32,000 nucleotides of DNA from Dickeya solani IPO 2222. GTDB lineage: Bacteria > Pseudomonadota > Gammaproteobacteria > Enterobacterales > Enterobacteriaceae. A program made the position numbers and the translations under genes. Position 1 is the stretch's first letter, and each line of letters begins with the position of its first letter. This document shows positions 2,957 to 30,564 of this stretch, piece by piece. The notes below the pieces were generated by a model, which had not been told where the DNA came from, made no database searches, and saw only the letters and a program-made list of their open reading frames with translations. The stretch lies in contig NZ_CP015137.1 in NCBI RefSeq assembly GCF_001644705.1, positions 630,001 to 662,000 of the forward strand. The letters are read 5' to 3'.

Positions 2957-4060
2957 ATGCCCAACGTATTCGATCACTATCGTTACCTGCACACCATTCC
3001 GGAACTGGGGTTCCAGGAATTCAAGACCTCCGATTACCTGGCCTCGCAATTGGAAACGGCGGGCTACCGTCTGACCCGCGGCGTCAACGGCACCACCGGC
3101 ATGGTGGCGGAACTGGACAGCGGCGTGCCCGGCCCGGTGCTGGCGCTGCGCGCCGACATGGATGCGCTGGGCCATATTATTGACGGCGAATTCTGCGCCC
3201 GCCACACCTGCGGACACGACGCCCATGCCTCGGTGGTGCTGACCGCCGCTCAGGAGCTGATGCGCGACGGCGTGGTAAAGAAAGGAAGGCTGAAGATCCT
3301 GTTTCAACCCGCCGAAGAACTGGGTACCGGCGCCATCGCGATGGTGGAAGGCGGCGCCATTGACGACGTAGACATGATCCTCGGCTTTCACCTGCGCCCG
3401 GTGGAAGAGTGCGTGCTGGGCGAGGCGATACCGGCGATGCATTATTCCGCCAGCAGCACGCTGGAAGTTATCTTCCACGGCCAACCGGCGCACGGCGCGC
3501 GCCCGCATCTGGGTGTGAACGCGCTGGAAGCCGCCGCCAACGCCGTCATGGCGGTGAAGGCGGTTCCGCTGGCGCCGCACCTGACCTGGAGCGCCAAGGC
3601 CACCCGTTTTCTGTGCGACGCCGGCGTGACCAACTCCATTCCGGATAGCGCCACGGTGTGCTGGGACCTGCGTTCGTCCCGGAATGACGCGATGGACGAG
3701 TTGAAAACAAAAGTGCTCCGCGCCATTGAGCACAGCGCGGCGGCTTACGGCGCGACGGCCGAAATCACACTGCTGAAAGAGATCCCGGCGGCGGATATTC
3801 ATGACGACGCCACCGCCCTTATCAGCGCCGCTATCGTGGATGTGCTGGGCGAAGCCGGTCTGACCGCGCCCAAAAGCACCGCGGGCGGAGAAGACTTTTT
3901 CTTCTATCCGCGCCTCAAGCCACAGATTAAGGCCGGCTTCTGGGGGCTGGGCACCAATCTCAAACCGGGACTGCACCACCCGGAGATGCATTTTGAACTA
4001 TCGTCGCTGGAAACCGGCGTGCAGGTATTCAAACGCTGCGTGGAAAAGATGTTGGGATAA
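2957..4060 (+). CDS. M20D-family amidohydrolase (aminoacylase / hippurate hydrolase / ILR1-like)
   Basis: The translation shows the HxxPELGFQE, ALRADMDAL, HxCGHDAH and FQPAEE metal-site blocks typical of peptidase M20D. The ORF track starts at a TTG (2933). ATG 2957 is preferred because AAGAGAG lies 5-10 nt upstream. Confidence 0.88.
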   Translation: MPNVFDHYRYLHTIPELGFQEFKTSDYLASQLETAGYRLTRGVNGTTGMVAELDSGVPGPVLALRADMDALGHIIDGEFCARHTCGHDAHASVVLTAAQELMRDGVVKKGRLKILFQPAEELGTGAIAMVEGGAIDDVDMILGFHLRPVEECVLGEAIPAMHYSASSTLEVIFHGQPAHGARPHLGVNALEAAANAVMAVKAVPLAPHLTWSAKATRFLCDAGVTNSIPDSATVCWDLRSSRNDAMDELKTKVLRAIEHSAAAYGATAEITLLKEIPAADIHDDATALISAAIVDVLGEAGLTAPKSTAGGEDFFFYPRLKPQIKAGFWGLGTNLKPGLHHPEMHFELSSLETGVQVFKRCVEKMLG

Positions 4061-23656: not shown

Positions 23657-26197
23657 TTAACGAATATAGCGGTCAATCAAATTGAAGTTCAGATAGCGGT
23701 AGGTGTCGTCCGCGGTCTTGTCCACCTGCGCCATATACTGCTGGTACTCGTCCGGCGTCGGCAGACGCCCCAGCAGCGAGGCTATCGCCGCCAGTTCGGC
23801 CGACGCCAGATACACATTCGCGCCCGCGCCCAGACGGTTCGGGAAGTTTCGGGTCGATGTCGACACCACCGTCGCCCCGTCCGCCACCCGCGCCTGGTTG
23901 CCCATGCACAGCGAACAGCCGGGGATTTCGACCCGCGCACCGCTCTTGCCGAACACGCTGTAGTACCCTTCCTCGGTCAGTTGCGCGGCGTCCATCCGGG
24001 TCGGCAGCTGCCCCTTGTGCTGATCCAGCAGCTTGCCCGCCGCCCGGAAGTGACCGATGTTGGTCATGCACGAGCCGATGAACACTTCATCGATTTTATC
24101 GCCCTGCACCGTGGACAGCAGACGCGCATCGTCCGGGTCGTTCGGCGCGCACAGGATCGGCTCCCTGATGTCCGCCAGATCGATGTCGATCACCGCGGCG
24201 TATTCCGCATCGGCGTCGGCTTCCAGCAGTTGCGGGTCCGCCAGCCATTTTTCCATGCCCTGCACACGACGCTCCAGCGTGCGGCGATCGCCGTAGCCTT
24301 CGGCAATCATCCACTTCAGCAGGATGATGTTGGAGTTCAGGTACTCGACGATCGGCTCTTTGTTGAGCTTGATGGTACAGCCCGCCGCGGAGCGCTCCGC
24401 CGAGGCATCGGTCAGTTCGAACGCCTGCTCCGCTTTCAGGTCCGGCAACCCTTCGATTTCCAGGATGCGGCCGGAGAAGATGTTTTTCTTGCCCTTCTTC
24501 TCCACGGTCAGCAGACCCTGTTTGATCGCGTAGTACGGGATCGCGTGCACCAGATCGCGCAGCGTGATACCCGGCTGCATCTGGCCGGTGAAACGCACCA
24601 GCACCGATTCCGGCATATCCAGCGGCATCACGCCGGTGGCGGCGGCAAACGCCACCAGACCGGAGCCGGCCGGGAAGGAAATCCCGATCGGGAAACGGGT
24701 GTGAGAATCGCCGCCGGTGCCGACGGTATCCGGCAGCAGCATGCGGTTCAGCCAGGAGTGGATCACGCCGTCGCCCGGACGCAGCGACACCCCGCCGCGG
24801 TTCATGATGAAATCCGGCAGGGTGTGGTGGGTGTTGACGTCCACCGGCTTCGGATAGGCGGCGGTGTGGCAGAAGGACTGCATCACCAGATCGGCGGAGA
24901 AGCCCAGACAGGCCAGGTCTTTCAGTTCGTCACGGGTCATCGGACCGGTGGTGTCCTGAGACCCGACCGACGCCATCTTCGGCTCGCAGTAGGCGCCGGG
25001 GCGAATGCCGGCGACGCCGCAGGCACGGCCGACCATCTTCTGCGCCAGCGAGAAGCCGCGGCGGCTCGGCGCCACGTCTTTGGCCTGGCGGAACACCCCG
25101 CTGTGCGGCAGGCCGAGCGACTCGCGCGCTTTGGCGGTCAGGCCGCGGCCGACAATCAGCGGGATACGGCCGCCGGCGCGCACTTCATCCAGCAGCACGT
25201 CGGTTTTCAGCTCAAAACTGGCCAGCAGTTCGTTGCTGTCGTGGTGGCGTACTTCACCCTGGTACGGGTAGATATCAATCACGTCGCCCATGTTCAGCCC
25301 GGCGACATCCACCTCGATCGGCAGCGCGCCGGCGTCTTCCATGGTGTTGAAGAAAATCGGCGCGATCTTGCCGCCCAGTACCACGCCGCCGCCGCGCTTG
25401 TTCGGCACGTTCGGGATATCGTCGCCCATGAACCACAGCACCGAGTTGGTGGCGGATTTACGGGACGAGCCGGTGCCGACCACGTCGCCGACGTAGGCCA
25501 GCGGGAACCCTTTCCGGTTCAGCGCCTCGATCTGCCTGATCGGGCCGACGGCGCCGGGCTGATCCGGCTCGATGCCGTCGCGGGCGTTTTTCAGCATCGC
25601 CAGCGCGTGCAGCGGAATGTCCGGACGCGACCAGGCGTCCTGCGCCGGGGACAGGTCATCGGTATTGGTTTCGCCGGTGACCTTGAACACGGTGACGGTA
25701 ATTTTTTCCGCCAGCGCCGGGCGGGACAGGAACCACTCGGCGTCAGCCCAGGATTTGACCACCTGCTGCGCGTGGGTATTGCCGGCGTTGGCCTTTTCTT
25801 CCACGTCGTAGAAATTGTCGAACATCAGCAGGGTATGCGATAAGGCGTTGACGGCGACCGGGGCCAGAGCGGGATTATCCAGCGCTTCAATCAGCGGCTG
25901 AATGTTGTAGCCGCCCTGCATGGTGCCCAGCAGCTCGATGGCCTTTGCCGGGGTAATGAGGGGAGAAACGGTCTCGCCTTTGGTGATGGCAGCCAGGAAA
26001 CCGGCTTTGACGTAGGCCGCCTCATCAACACCCGGCGGAACGCGATTGACTAACAGATCGACTAAAAACTCTTCTTCTCCGGCGGGGGGAGTTTTCAACA
26101 ATTCCACCAGCGCCGCCATTTGCGAAGCCTCTAGCGGTTTGGGTACGGTACCTTGCAGGGTACGTTTGGCGACATGCTCACGGTATTCTTTCAACAC
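23657..26197 (-). CDS. acnB: Aconitate hydratase B / 2-methylisocitrate dehydratase (846 aa; apparently shorter than canonical AcnB)
   Basis: [71 protein letters not shown]... is colinear with E. coli AcnB throughout. The Fe-S ligand regions (…SFCHTAAYP…, …IGSCMTN…, …[11 protein letters not shown]…) are present. See the findings for the internal gap and the 3' end. Confidence 0.93.
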
Positions 26198-26584
26198 AGC
26201 GCGTTCCTTATAAACTCAAATAATTCGCTCATAATCGGGTCAATCAGCGATATTCCTGTTGGTGGCGGCTCACGTTTTTCAAATAGAAAACACTCAGGCT
26301 GTTCACAATAAATCAAAGAATGACATTAGCTGGCGTTTTAACACCGATGAAATAAATTAAATAATCATCTCACTTAACATTGCCGGCCATATTAGTTAAC
26401 ATGCAATAGATAAAACCTGCTAAATTCCAATACCGGCCGACGGTAAAGAAAGAAAAATAACAAATCAATGGAATAATAATTAAAAGCATAAAATTCATTT
26501 AATTCTTTTTATTTATCCGCCAATGTGATCGCCGATCAACATTTCCATTCATGATCGCAGCTACTTTACCCCAGTCAAAAAATC

Positions 26585-27922
26585 ATGAATGAACAAGAGG
26601 TGATTGTGTTTAAATTTCTCATAGACTTACTAAAAGATGCCGCCATATTGGTCAGTCTTTTCACCATGTTCGGTAATATCATTCAAAAGAAGAACATCAA
26701 TGATATTATTACCTCAACAGTTAAAACCTACCTTGGGTTTGTTATTCTTTTTGCCAGTGCGAACCTACTTATATCGCCATCATTAAATAATTTCTCAAAG
26801 ATATTTCTGACCGCATTTCATGTTCAGGGCATTGTACCTAACAATGAAGTCGTTATCGTTGTTGCTATGGAAAAACTGGGGCAGATTTATTCTTCAGCTA
26901 TTGCTGTCGGACTTATCGGCGCGATGCTTTTCAATATCATACTGGCCAGAGTCACGCCGTTGAAATATATCGTGCTGTCCGGGCATCATGTTTTTTTCAT
27001 GGTAAGTTGCCTGACCATCATCGCCATGCTACACGGTATCTCCGTTTCCAACTCAGCCATACTGGCCACTTTTATTACCGGAATATGGTGTGTTATTTCT
27101 CCGGCGCTGTTGGTACGCTACTGCCGCCAAATTGACAATTGTGATGAATTAAGAAAATCAGGTGACTTCTCTATCGGCCAGTTCGGTTCCACCAGCTATA
27201 TGTTAGCCGGTTGGCTGGGTGAAAAATTGGGTAACAAAGCGAATGACGCGGAAAAACTGGCTATCCCTACCAGCATTGGTTTTTTAAAAGATAAACAGGT
27301 TTCAACCTTCTTTGTCATGCTGTTGTTCTTTGTTGTTTCAGCGCTGGTCGCAGGGGCCGATCACGTGCAGCTGATTGCGGACGCCGGCAATAAAGATAGC
27401 AGCCACACCAATATATTTCTGTTTCTGTTGAAACAAGCCGGGCTGTTTGCCGCAGGCGTCTACATGCTGACCCGCGGCGTACATATGTTTATTGAAGAAC
27501 TGATTCCGGCGTTTAAAGGCATCAGCGATAAAGTGATTAAGAAATCGATTCCGGCGATCGAAATCTATTCGCTGTTTCCTTATTCCAACAACGCCGTCTT
27601 CATCGGTTTTATCTGCTGTACCATCAGCGGTTTCCTGACCATGATTCTGTTGCCGGTGTTTGGTTATCCGGCGATGGTTCCCAGCCTGTTGTTTACCTTT
27701 GCCAGCGGCGGCGGCGCGGGCATCATCGGTAATGCCACCGGCGGCATTCGTGGCGCAGTGATCGGCGCCGTTGCCTGTGGGATCATTTCGATTGCCGGCT
27801 CCGCATTCATTTTCCAGCCGATCCACGATGCCGGCGTCGATGCGCCGACAACCTACTCAACAACCGACTTTACGCTGCTGGGCCTGTCGCTGCACAGCGC
27901 GTTATCGTTGTTACATCGCTAA
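26585..27922 (+). CDS. UlaA/SgaT-family (PTS ascorbate-type EIIC-like) permease, with no adjacent EIIA/EIIB
   Basis: 445 aa and polytopic. It is colinear with UlaA as I recall it (…KTYLGFVILFASANLL…, …LSGHHVFFM…, …TRGVHMFIEELIPAFKGIS…, …AIEIYSLFPYSNNAV…). An in-frame GTG at 26606 has a good SD (AAGAGG, 5-nt spacer) and may be the true start. Confidence 0.85.
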   Translation: MNEQEVIVFKFLIDLLKDAAILVSLFTMFGNIIQKKNINDIITSTVKTYLGFVILFASANLLISPSLNNFSKIFLTAFHVQGIVPNNEVVIVVAMEKLGQIYSSAIAVGLIGAMLFNIILARVTPLKYIVLSGHHVFFMVSCLTIIAMLHGISVSNSAILATFITGIWCVISPALLVRYCRQIDNCDELRKSGDFSIGQFGSTSYMLAGWLGEKLGNKANDAEKLAIPTSIGFLKDKQVSTFFVMLLFFVVSALVAGADHVQLIADAGNKDSSHTNIFLFLLKQAGLFAAGVYMLTRGVHMFIEELIPAFKGISDKVIKKSIPAIEIYSLFPYSNNAVFIGFICCTISGFLTMILLPVFGYPAMVPSLLFTFASGGGAGIIGNATGGIRGAVIGAVACGIISIAGSAFIFQPIHDAGVDAPTTYSTTDFTLLGLSLHSALSLLHR

Positions 27923-27930
27923 AAATATTG

Positions 27931-28107
27931 ATGTGGTCTGGCGCAACCAGGCCACTTATTTGTTTCAATGACGGTCATTGTTTAAATAGCGGTAATTGTT
28001 TCAATGACGGTAACTGTTTCAATGACGGTAACTGTTTCAATGACGGTAACTGTTTCAATAACGGTCATTGTTTCAATAGCGGTCATTGTTTCAATAGCGA
28101 TACGTAA
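27931..28107 (+). CDS. Hypothetical 58-codon micro-ORF encoding a Cys-rich hexapeptide repeat (speculative; may be non-coding)
   Basis: ATG 27931 to TAA 28105..28107 translates to MWSGATRPLI-CFNDGH-CLNSGN-CFNDGN-CFNDGN-CFNDGN-CFNNGH-CFNSGH-CFNSDT. It is the only frame open across all eight units, and its stop codon follows the last unit directly. It falls below the apparent ~60-aa floor of the supplied ORF track (shortest entries are 60 aa). Against a coding role, there is no SD and the ATG lies at the foot of the terminator hairpin. Confidence 0.2.
   Translation: MWSGATRPLICFNDGHCLNSGNCFNDGNCFNDGNCFNDGNCFNNGHCFNSGHCFNSDT
27933..27966 (+). terminator. Rho-independent terminator after the UlaA-like permease
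   Basis: GTGGTCTGG-cgcaa-CCAGGCCAC forms a 9-bp stem with one G.U pair, followed by TTATTTGTTTC. It starts 11 nt after the TAA at 27920..27922. Confidence 0.7.
27961..28104 (+). repeat. Tandem array of eight 18-bp units (consensus TGTTTCAATGACGGTAAC)
   Basis: Units start at 27961, 27979, 27997, 28015, 28033, 28051, 28069 and 28087. Units 3-5 are identical. The others differ at unit positions 6, 10-11 and 16-18, and the last unit is degenerate. Some units contain the dyad CAATGAC-G-GTCATTG. The array lies between the permease terminator and the sensor-kinase gene. Confidence 0.95.
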
Positions 28108-28234
28108 CACCGCTCTCCAGCGGCTCGCGAAAATCAGGCAACCTTTCCATTTTGCGATGGTCTATTTGCCCCCGGCAATGCCCTACAGGGTGGTGCCGGG
28201 CTTATCCTGTACAACATGACTGACGGAATCCCCC

Positions 28235-29848
28235 ATGTCAGAGGCCATAACCGCCGGCAGCGAGCCGAGAAGCTCTTACAAGTATCAGATAATACTGTAC
28301 TATTTCATTACCTCGCTGGCAGTGGTCGTGGCGACCGGCTGCGCCGTGTTTCTGATTATCAGCAACCTGCTCTACAATGATGTGGCTGAGAAATCACAGA
28401 ATATGGCGTCGATCCTCTCTCAGGACTCCGAGCTCAAGCAAGCGATCAGCAACCGGGACACGGCGGGCTTGCGTAGCCTTATCAATCAGCACTACACCCA
28501 CAGCGATGCCGACTTTATCGTCATCAGCGATCCTGACAATATCCGGCTATACCACCCCGATCCCCTGCAGGTAAACATCGCTATCAAGGACATTGGCAAC
28601 ATCAATCTGCTACGCAATGGGAAAAGCTATACCGTCAAAAATACCGGGTACTCCGGCGCTTCGGTAAAAACGCGCGCCCCCTTTATTCTGGATGGAAAAT
28701 ATATCGGTTACGTTTCGGTGGGCTACACAGAAGCGCATCGACAGGGGTTGCTGGCCAGCTATTTCACGCCTTTTCTCGCGCTGCTTATTTCCGTATTTAT
28801 CCTGATTCTGCTGGGCGGCGTTTTTTCCTACCGTTTGCTGAAAAAACAGATGTCCGGCCTGACGCCGGAAATGATCAATTATAGATATCAGGTCAGAAGA
28901 GCCATTCTGCACGCCATTTACGATGGCGTGATTGCCGTCAGCCCGGAAGGGCGCATCATCGCCATCAACAATGCCGCCAAAAAGATGCTCTCCATCGACC
29001 ATCCCCACGGCCCGCTGACAGGACACAAGATTACCGATTATGTAGTACCGGCCGATTTCTTCTTATCCGCCGAGCGTCAGGAGTGCCACGATGTGGACGT
29101 CGCTTTTAACGGTTCGACGTTTATCGCCAACCGGGCCATCATCCTCAATCAGCAGGATGAGTTTGCCGGTTTCGTGATCAGTCTGAGGGAAAAGACCAAT
29201 GAAACCCTGATGACCAAGCAGGTCAACCACATTAAACATGAAAGCGAAGAGCTGCGGGTTATCAGTCACGAGTTCAAAAATCGGCTGGCCGTTATCTACG
29301 GTCTGATCCAGTTGGGAGAATATGAGCGGGTCAGTCAGTACGTCGCGCAGGAGAATGCCCAACTACAGCAGTTTTATGATGCGATCATCAAATCCTTTCA
29401 CTGTCCGTGCGTTGCCGGGTTGATACTCGGGAAACTGGGGCGCGCGGGCGAACTCGGCATCGATCTGCGTATCGACCCGCTATCCTATTACACCGGCGCG
29501 AACGCGCCGCTGAGCGCCGAGGAAATGGCCTGCATCATCGGTAATCTGCTGGACAACGCACTGGAGGCCACGGTGAAAACGCCAACCCATCCCCAGTCGA
29601 TCGAGCTTTACCTTAATGACGGCAGCGATGAAATCGTACTGTCGGTTCAGGACAATGGTCCCGGCCTCGACCAGATAGCAGCCGAAGCGCTGTTTGCAAA
29701 GGGCGCGACCAGCAAACCAGGCCGTCACCACGGCGTCGGGTTGTATCTGGTGCAGTCACTGGTACAGAAAGCGCGGGGCGAGTGTCTGGTCGATACGGCC
29801 GACGACAACGGCGGCGCGGTTTTTTCAGTTTACATCCCTAAGGTTTAA
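28235..29848 (+). CDS. CitA/DcuS-family sensor histidine kinase (periplasmic PAS/Cache-like domain, TM2, cytoplasmic PAS, SpoOB-type DHp, HATPase)
   Basis: 537 aa. Two TM segments flank a ~130-aa periplasmic domain that carries an R-x-x-H-P motif (IRLYHP) and a later R (KTRAPF), reminiscent of the DcuS/CitA carboxylate-binding residues. The H-box is VISHEFKNRLAVI. N, G1 and G2 boxes are present (NLLDNALEA, DNGPGL, GVGLYLV). Confidence 0.88.
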   Translation: MSEAITAGSEPRSSYKYQIILYYFITSLAVVVATGCAVFLIISNLLYNDVAEKSQNMASILSQDSELKQAISNRDTAGLRSLINQHYTHSDADFIVISDPDNIRLYHPDPLQVNIAIKDIGNINLLRNGKSYTVKNTGYSGASVKTRAPFILDGKYIGYVSVGYTEAHRQGLLASYFTPFLALLISVFILILLGGVFSYRLLKKQMSGLTPEMINYRYQVRRAILHAIYDGVIAVSPEGRIIAINNAAKKMLSIDHPHGPLTGHKITDYVVPADFFLSAERQECHDVDVAFNGSTFIANRAIILNQQDEFAGFVISLREKTNETLMTKQVNHIKHESEELRVISHEFKNRLAVIYGLIQLGEYERVSQYVAQENAQLQQFYDAIIKSFHCPCVAGLILGKLGRAGELGIDLRIDPLSYYTGANAPLSAEEMACIIGNLLDNALEATVKTPTHPQSIELYLNDGSDEIVLSVQDNGPGLDQIAAEALFAKGATSKPGRHHGVGLYLVQSLVQKARGECLVDTADDNGGAVFSVYIPKV

Positions 29849-29871
29849 CAACGAGTTAGAAGATTGACGCT

Positions 29872-30564
29872 ATGGAAAACAAGATCAGCGTATTTTTGGT
29901 TGAAGATAATCACGACATGGCTTTCTTCATTGAAAGCTTCATCAGAAAACACCCAGAATTCCTGCTGTTAGGAAGCGCCGATACCCTTAGCGATGCCCGG
30001 ATAGCCATCGCCGCCCAAAAGCCCGATCTCGTGATGCTGGATAACTATCTGCCCGATGGCACCGGGATCGACATCATGAAACATCTGCGCACCACACAGC
30101 CGGATATCGACGTCATTTTCATCACCGCCGCCAACGACATCGACACGATTAAAACCGCGATACGCCACGGCGCCTGTGACTATCTGGTAAAACCGTTCAT
30201 GCTGGAAAGGCTGGAAGAAGCATTAAAAAACTATCTGATGTTCAGCAGAAAGGTACGCCAGAAATCGCACCTGCCACAGGAAGAGATCGATCGCGTGATA
30301 CGCCAGTCGATCCCCTATAGCGCACCGGCCGGATTCATTTATCCGAAAGGCATTGATGAACTGACGCTCAATCAGGTGCGGGCGGCATTTTCCGGCGAGA
30401 ACGTCCAGCACACCGCCGACAGCCTGAGCGACACGATCGGTATCAGCAAGTCCACCGCCCGGCGCTATCTGGAATACTGCAAAAACATCAAACTGCTGGA
30501 AGCGCACATCCAGCACGGCACCGTCGGACGCCCCCAACGCTTCTACCGTCTGACCTTCAATTAA
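29872..30564 (+). CDS. CitB/DcuR-family response regulator (receiver + C-terminal HTH)
   Basis: 230 aa. The receiver has DD…D (LVMLDNYLPDG), T and K (VKPF). The C-terminal block TADSLSDTIGISKSTARRYLEY is an HTH. It starts 24 nt after the kinase stop. Confidence 0.9.
   Translation: MENKISVFLVEDNHDMAFFIESFIRKHPEFLLLGSADTLSDARIAIAAQKPDLVMLDNYLPDGTGIDIMKHLRTTQPDIDVIFITAANDIDTIKTAIRHGACDYLVKPFMLERLEEALKNYLMFSRKVRQKSHLPQEEIDRVIRQSIPYSAPAGFIYPKGIDELTLNQVRAAFSGENVQHTADSLSDTIGISKSTARRYLEYCKNIKLLEAHIQHGTVGRPQRFYRLTFN

Follow-up and report, generated by a model that had tools for sequence, protein, structure and literature searches.

In the genome of Dickeya solani IPO 2222 we analysed a stretch of 32,000 nucleotides (contig NZ_CP015137.1, positions 630,001 to 662,000; hereafter the window, to whose first letter all coordinates refer unless a locus from another genome is named), in which a tandem array of 18-bp units separates two genes of the same strand. 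Upstream lies the gene for an EIIC-GAT (UlaA/SgaT-like) permease of the phosphotransferase system (26585..27922, + strand; Pfam PF03611, E 7e-90), whose stop codon is the TAA at 27920-27922. Downstream, and likewise on the + strand, a CitA/DcuS-type sensor kinase (28235-29848; Pfam sCache_3_2, SPOB_a and HATPase_c), 100% identical to a Dickeya solani protein, is followed by a DpiA/CitB-type response regulator (29872-30564; Pfam Response_reg and HTH_64). The permease gene adjoins the kinase gene in every Dickeya locus that we collected. A first-pass annotation made from the sequence had placed eight head-to-tail 18-bp units between the permease and the kinase, some 130-270 bp upstream of the kinase start; a hand listing of the units, Tandem Repeats Finder (TRF) and the Pfam assignments agree with this description, the measured distance to the kinase ATG (28235) being 132-275 bp.

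The array occupies 27960-28103 in the phase reported by TRF and 27961-28104 in codon phase. TRF itself delimits 27960..28095 (period 18, 7.6 copies, 89% matches, score 188) and ranks it as by far the strongest repeat in the window. The units, to which no strand can be assigned, follow the consensus TTGTTTCAATGACGGTAA and fall into types arranged as a b c c c d e f, in which the 5' half, TGTTT(C/A)AAT (TGTTTMAAT), is invariant and the 3' half variable. A 15-nt degenerate pattern of the unit matches the window eight times, always within the array, against 0.04 matches expected, and a degenerate pattern of the unit dimer has no match in metagenome contigs and none in viral contigs. The units had also been said to hold the dyad CAATGAC-G-GTCATTG. 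An inverted-repeat search finds it perfect only once, at 27966-27980, and in versions about 80% complementary in the other units. As single-stranded DNA the array folds with -20.6 kcal/mol (z = -3.2 against shuffled sequences).

On its 5' side the array abuts the rho-independent terminator of the permease gene (27933..27965, + strand; terminator scan), in which a hairpin of 9-bp stem and 5-nt loop (27933-27955) is followed by the T-rich tail TTATTTGTTT, extending into the first repeat unit. In the alignment fold, all nine pairs of the stem are kept across seven species variants and none is broken, with one pair changed on both sides from U:A to C:G. On its 3' side, alignments delimit a non-repeated, conserved region that runs on the + strand from the array to the kinase start (28104..28234) and presumably holds the promoter and 5' untranslated region of the kinase gene, although promoter prediction found no consensus sigma-70 promoter on the + strand in it.

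Orthologous loci were gathered through members of the protein cluster of the kinase, and the intergenic region between permease and kinase was read in all 34 of them (numbered L001 to L034), covering nine other Dickeya species or lineages. Scanning genome contigs with the kinase gave only D. oryzae and D. undicola, the same scan of metagenome contigs gave no new locus, only one contig already in the set, and a look-up of the 438-aa permease variant gave no match. Two loci of the main D. solani clone (L003 and L004) carry eight units and are identical to the window base for base. Elsewhere in D. solani, GCA_020406975 (L015) has seven units in the order a-b-a-b-a-g-f, in which TRF detects a higher-order period of 36 bp (97% match), and GCA_032681045 (L017) has three, with an extra A in the last. 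The units of GCA_026891515 (L016) are not countable; its assembly breaks within the array, the short-read contig starting or ending there, as is typical of repeats. Three units are also present in three D. dadantii genomes (L018, L019 and L021), which have an extra A between the hairpin and the array. A single unit, reading (C)TGTTT(C/A)AATAGC and located in the same place after the same terminator hairpin, is found in ten D. fangzhongdai loci (L005-L014), in NCPPB 3274 (L020), in eleven D. zeae loci (among L022-L029 and L032-L034), and in D. oryzae and D. poaceiphila (among L001 and L030-L031). D. undicola (L002, 3914-4000) has neither the hairpin nor the unit and only 87 bp between the two genes, which correspond to the last ~87 bp of the region 28104-28234; in this species that region suffices alone.

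The number of copies tracks the divergence of the flanks. With flanking coding DNA that is 100% identical there are eight units, at 99.5% seven, at 99.1% three and at 96.5% again three, while the farther relatives have one unit at about 90% identity and one or none at 82-86%. Blocks of units have been duplicated as well, as seen in the three identical c units of the main clone and in the (a-b) x 2.5 arrangement of GCA_020406975. The locus combines a tandem organization beyond chance, a copy number that varies between conserved flanks and an internal rearrangement of units, the features by which a variable-number tandem repeat (VNTR) is recognized. The counts across orthologous loci (8, 7, 3, 3, 1 or 0 units) bear out the variable-number spacer that the first-pass annotation had listed among several non-coding options.

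The alignment of collapsed intergenic regions from eight species identifies the copy from which the array arose. The terminal D. solani copy and the flank that follows it (CGTAACACCG) align with the one copy that other species have; this terminal, ancestral copy with its conserved flank, which has no strand of its own, spans 28086..28108 (TTGTTTCAATAGCGATAC-GTAAC). The array therefore grew from one ancestral copy, first to three copies in the dadantii/solani lineages and later to seven or eight within D. solani. On the basis of these data, we consider it very probable that the array is a non-coding, lineage-specific VNTR (minisatellite) of Dickeya solani, of recent expansion. Its seed would be the single conserved TGTTT(C/A)AATAGC...ACGTAAC that directly follows the permease terminator in most Dickeya species, and whose first bases would form part of the terminator U-tract. 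Expansion probably occurred by slipped-strand mispairing or unequal recombination during replication, presumably helped by the partly palindromic unit, which could form slipped hairpins, and by the stable hairpin next to it. The array itself would have no dedicated function and would only add length to the spacer, untranscribed or poorly transcribed, that separates the permease terminator from the kinase promoter region. The only likely effect would be that each added unit moves the terminator 18 bp farther from the kinase promoter region, and the expansion of the spacer is probably near-neutral.

The array can also be read as protein. A frame of 58 codons on the + strand (27931..28107), which we judge not to be a gene, opens with the ATG at 27931, runs through all eight units and closes with the TAA at 28105-28107, directly after the last unit and within the conserved flank. 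It translates to MWSGATRPLICFNDGHCLNSGNCFNDGNCFNDGNCFNDGNCFNNGHCFNSGHCFNSDT, that is, MWSGATRPLI followed by eight C-[FL]-N-[DSN]-[GD]-[HNT] hexapeptides, with Cys and Asn in 8/8 units and Gly in 7/8; the frame, its limits and these invariances are as the first-pass annotation had given them. It had proposed on this basis a Cys-rich repeat peptide that could be a precursor of a ribosomally synthesized and post-translationally modified peptide (RiPP), a metal binder or a signal precursor. The open frame and the invariant Cys and Asn speak for translation, as does the seven-unit D. solani allele, which keeps the Cys frame in a version of 52 aa. Of the other two plus frames, described earlier as broken, one does have 12 stops and the other a single stop; the further statement that TGA occurs in every unit of one of them did not hold, since in the heavily broken frame only four units have TGA and the others have TAG or TAA.

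The comparison with relatives goes against translation. In all three D. dadantii genomes the additional base before the array shifts the frame, so that translation from the ATG would give MWSGATRPLNLFK; in D. solani GCA_032681045 the additional base ends the peptide with ...CFK in the third and last unit. The start codon is ACG instead of ATG in nine of the ten D. fangzhongdai loci and in NCPPB 3274, and in the species with a single copy the ATG frame reads an unrelated sequence. It had been stated beforehand that stops in this frame, or indels that are not multiples of three, would refute the coding reading; indels among the relatives do not always preserve the frame, both features are present, and the reading fails. 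Evidence from within the locus agrees. Inspection of the sequence before the ATG at 27931 reveals no Shine-Dalgarno, and the G of that ATG is the first stem base of the terminator hairpin, two objections that the first-pass annotation had already raised against its own proposal. Its third, that the unit differences are mostly non-synonymous, is also correct. D. solani and D. dadantii together have 12 distinct units, whose variable sites are spread over codon positions 1, 2 and 3 as 3/3/2, with AAT/AAC as the only synonymous change. The constancy of Cys and Asn follows from that of TGTTTMAAT, a half-unit of the DNA that varies no more in species where this frame does not read it. The 58-aa peptide matches no Pfam family, and its exact sequence is absent from a collection of 15 billion proteins in which the adjacent kinase is found on 25 contigs. 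No peptide-modifying (maturase-type) gene lies nearby, the neighbours being, by Pfam, aconitase B upstream of the permease, the permease itself, the two-component system and, downstream of the latter, an aromatic amino acid lyase.

An open frame is, moreover, what an array of this period should contain. When 18-mers of the unit's composition were shuffled and repeated eight times, 99.8% of the resulting arrays had at least one open frame among the six, and 98% had one on a given strand; the open frames through the array on both strands result from a period that is divisible by three. The minus strand has such a frame of 42 codons (27982..28110; VLRIAIETMTAIETMTVIET... in the translated list of open reading frames), which is a repeat-derived artefact; the protein collection likewise lacks its exact 42-aa sequence, whether begun with M or V. 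The annotation of one D. solani assembly has this minus-strand frame (VLRIAIETMT...) as a gene (L003, 2748-2876) in place of the 58-codon frame. A separate case is that of D. oryzae ZYY5 (L001, 3851-4003), in which the frame from the ATG at the foot of the hairpin is free of stops for 150 nt and runs in frame into the kinase ATG; it looks like chance, since D. zeae has a stop in the same frame. Translation of the array into a functional peptide thus appears to us to have a next to negligible probability, and none of the three proposed kinds of peptide is borne out. More generally, almost every tandem repeat with a period divisible by three will look like a micro-ORF (open reading frame) for a repeat peptide, and it is comparative genomics that removes the repeat-peptide reading at this locus.

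As part of a transcript, whether of a permease mRNA extended at its 3' end or of the leader of the kinase mRNA, the array could act as a structured or protein-titrating RNA, a possibility that had been raised as an RNA leader. The intergenic RNA does fold better than its shuffled versions (-104.6 kcal/mol, z = -3.95), but better-than-shuffle folds, of the RNA as of the single-stranded DNA, are expected here, since good folding is a property of every tandem array whose unit is partly palindromic. A conserved terminator precedes the array, no promoter on the + strand is predicted before or inside it, it is absent or single-copy in related species, and a search of Rfam with both strands of 26000-30000 gave no match at E <= 1. 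The units contain no GGA, the motif of CsrA/RsmA-type proteins, which rules out a CsrA/RsmA sponge. We accordingly find the RNA-leader proposal unsupported, and a role of the array at the RNA level highly improbable.

The array could instead act as DNA. The units would then be candidate binding sites, either of a nucleoid protein or of the CitB/DpiA-type regulator encoded next to them, or the array would be a spacer of tunable length, an explanation that we regard as unlikely. Its consequence, that copy number would set the expression of the kinase/regulator operon or the read-through from the permease gene in the manner of a contingency locus, is unlikely to the same degree. The location of the array upstream of the kinase start, the constancy of the unit's 5' half across copies and species, the partly palindromic nature of the units and three weak promoter-like sites on the minus strand inside the array are all compatible with such a role. 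So is the core of the unit, TTGTTTAA, which resembles the direct repeats TTATT(A/T)AA bound by MaeR, a member of the CitB family (PMC5457438). This resemblance amounts to a match at seven of eight positions, which counts for little in a word so rich in A and T.

Several observations oppose the operator reading. Other species whose kinase and regulator are close relatives of these keep one unit (D. fangzhongdai, D. zeae, D. oryzae and D. poaceiphila) or, as in D. undicola with its 87 bp, none, and between D. solani lineages the order of the units is scrambled. The 13-15-nt unit motif has no further match in the 32-kb window, including its other intergenic regions and the very A/T-rich promoter region of the permease gene. 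Even the half-unit TGTTTMAAT recurs outside the array at only two places in the window, 6176 and 26607, the latter within the permease coding sequence. The exact MaeR consensus TTATTWAA is absent from the array; it has five matches elsewhere in the window, one of them in the permease promoter region at 26357-26364. MaeR binds three direct repeats, of which the first two are 1 bp apart and thus about 9 bp from start to start (PMC5457438), whereas the array has a strict period of 18 bp and not one of 10-11, 21 or about 9 bp that would suit cooperative binding to one face; since 18 bp make 1.7 helical turns, successive units face different sides of the DNA. No promoter on the + strand is predicted within the array. 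With a copy number that is not conserved, a motif that is absent from other promoters and a period that is off the helical phase, the reading of the array as a stack of operators or iterons, which had been suggested for the adjacent regulator, gets no support. A PhoP-type box, in which TGTTTA direct repeats need an 11-bp period, was also considered and is rejected at a period of 18.

Returning to the VNTR explanation, some points weigh against it as we have framed it. The copy number of the main clone rests on three genomes read, all with eight units, to which 23 further contigs were collapsed. The neutrality of the array is our inference from sequence comparison and may need revision. The half-unit TGTTTMAAT does not vary between copies or between species, which could reflect a constraint at the level of DNA beyond recency of the copies and a function in the terminator tail, and the seven-of-eight match of TTGTTTAA is to a site, TTATT(A/T)AA, of a regulator of the same family as the one encoded here (MaeR; PMC5457438). 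The chief residual doubt is a regulatory side-effect of copy number, to which we assign a small probability. In its stronger form, which we hold to be improbable, the expansion from three to seven or eight units in D. solani would be non-neutral and would tune expression of the CitA-family system or read-through from the permease gene. It might do so by multiplying a putative protein-binding half-site (TGTTTMAAT) or by altering the length of the spacer, mechanisms that we find just as improbable.

Were the regulatory reading true, a fast-evolving repeat and the expression of a sensor system would be linked in an emerging pathogen of potato. Were the expansion non-neutral, it would represent a contingency switch of the minisatellite type in an emerging plant pathogen, and the occurrence of two independent VNTRs on either side of one hairpin would point to terminators as general seeds of such repeats.

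The second of these VNTRs, unrelated to the first, lies 5' of the same terminator hairpin in D. fangzhongdai and NCPPB 3274 (L005-L014 and L020). It consists of 21-23-bp units (AAACATTGTTGTTGTCACTAA) that duplicate the last codons and the stop codon of the permease gene (for example, L006 2714-2803), in one, two, three or four copies depending on the strain. D. poaceiphila has two copies of a 16-mer related to this unit. Given this second repeat on the other side of the hairpin, the intergenic site is prone to duplication in general, and in several species the terminator hairpin seems to have a duplication hot spot beside it.

Further features of the region vary between species. A small hairpin, CCGCT-CTCC-AGCGG, stands just 3' of the array (28110-28123); at the fourth pair of its stem D. 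solani has C:G, D. dadantii T:A and D. fangzhongdai T:G, so that the stem survives changes on both sides. It is a candidate for a second terminator or for a part of the kinase control region. In D. undicola, where the terminator hairpin and unit are absent and 87 bp separate the genes, permease and kinase are probably co-transcribed, unlike in other species. The gene upstream of the permease differs by clade, being a divergent aconitase B gene in D. solani, D. dadantii and D. fangzhongdai and a GntR/UTRA regulator gene on the same strand in D. zeae and D. poaceiphila.

The window contains other short repeats. Four 14-bp direct repeats (TTTTTGAYGAACRC / TTATTGATAAACAC / TGATTGATAAACAC) at 2888-2943 lie downstream of the gene for an ABC-transporter ATPase (1376-2485) and stop about 14 bp short of the ATG (2957) of a gene for an M20-family peptidase/amidohydrolase (2957-4060); they resemble an operator or a short VNTR. 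The TRF table also lists a perfect tandem repeat of 9 bp in 3.6 copies (TTTTGTCGT) at 391-422.

By the tests applied, the array is outside any peptide, RNA, iteron or CRISPR family, and its partial likenesses to known systems are instructive. With multi-core RiPP precursors it shares a short Cys-containing motif repeated in one open frame, but it has no conserved open reading frame, ribosome-binding site, conserved leader or nearby modifying enzymes, and its frame is broken in sister lineages. It resembles phase-variable contingency loci as a repeat tract near a promoter whose length is changed by slippage. Classical loci of this kind have units of 1-8 bp inside the core promoter or the coding sequence; the units of the array measure 18 bp, and more than 130 bp separate them from the start codon downstream. 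The iterons of plasmids and phages are likewise direct repeats, of about 17-22 bp, but the array is located in a chromosomal intergenic spacer with neither a replication initiator gene nor an origin context, it is absent from close relatives, and its unit was not found in the viral contig collection. CRISPR (clustered regularly interspaced short palindromic repeats) was considered and ruled out, the units being head-to-tail with no spacers, as were the enterobacterial repetitive intergenic consensus and repetitive extragenic palindromic elements (ERIC/REP), to which there is no resemblance. The operators of the CitB/DcuR/MaeR family come close in that they are direct repeats with an A/T-rich core upstream of a CitA-family two-component operon; the MaeR operator, however, has three copies with a period of about 9 bp for its first two sites against eight copies of 18 bp here (PMC5457438). 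The array further differs from a MaeR-type operator in a copy number that is not conserved among species sharing the regulator and in a motif found at no other promoter of the window.

The closest counterparts are the intergenic VNTRs used for bacterial typing by multiple-locus VNTR analysis. Like the array, they consist of head-to-tail units of 10-100 bp between conserved flanks, break assemblies, vary in copy number between strains and sister species, and contain unit variants and higher-order duplications. A VNTR scheme that covers D. solani and D. dianthicola has been described, and in its application to D. solani it is reported to have distinguished three profiles among 54 isolates (Parkinson et al. 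2014, cited in PMC6127512); the array locus is not mentioned in the D. solani comparative-genomics papers that we searched. The array distinguishes D. solani lineages, with eight, seven or three units, and separates them from D. dadantii, with three. Since it discriminates lineages of a species that is otherwise very hard to subtype, it could serve as a typing marker. In these respects the array is an ordinary bacterial intergenic VNTR (minisatellite), and it differs from the usual loci of this kind in that both its ancestral single copy and the site of its origin, the tail of a terminator, can be identified.

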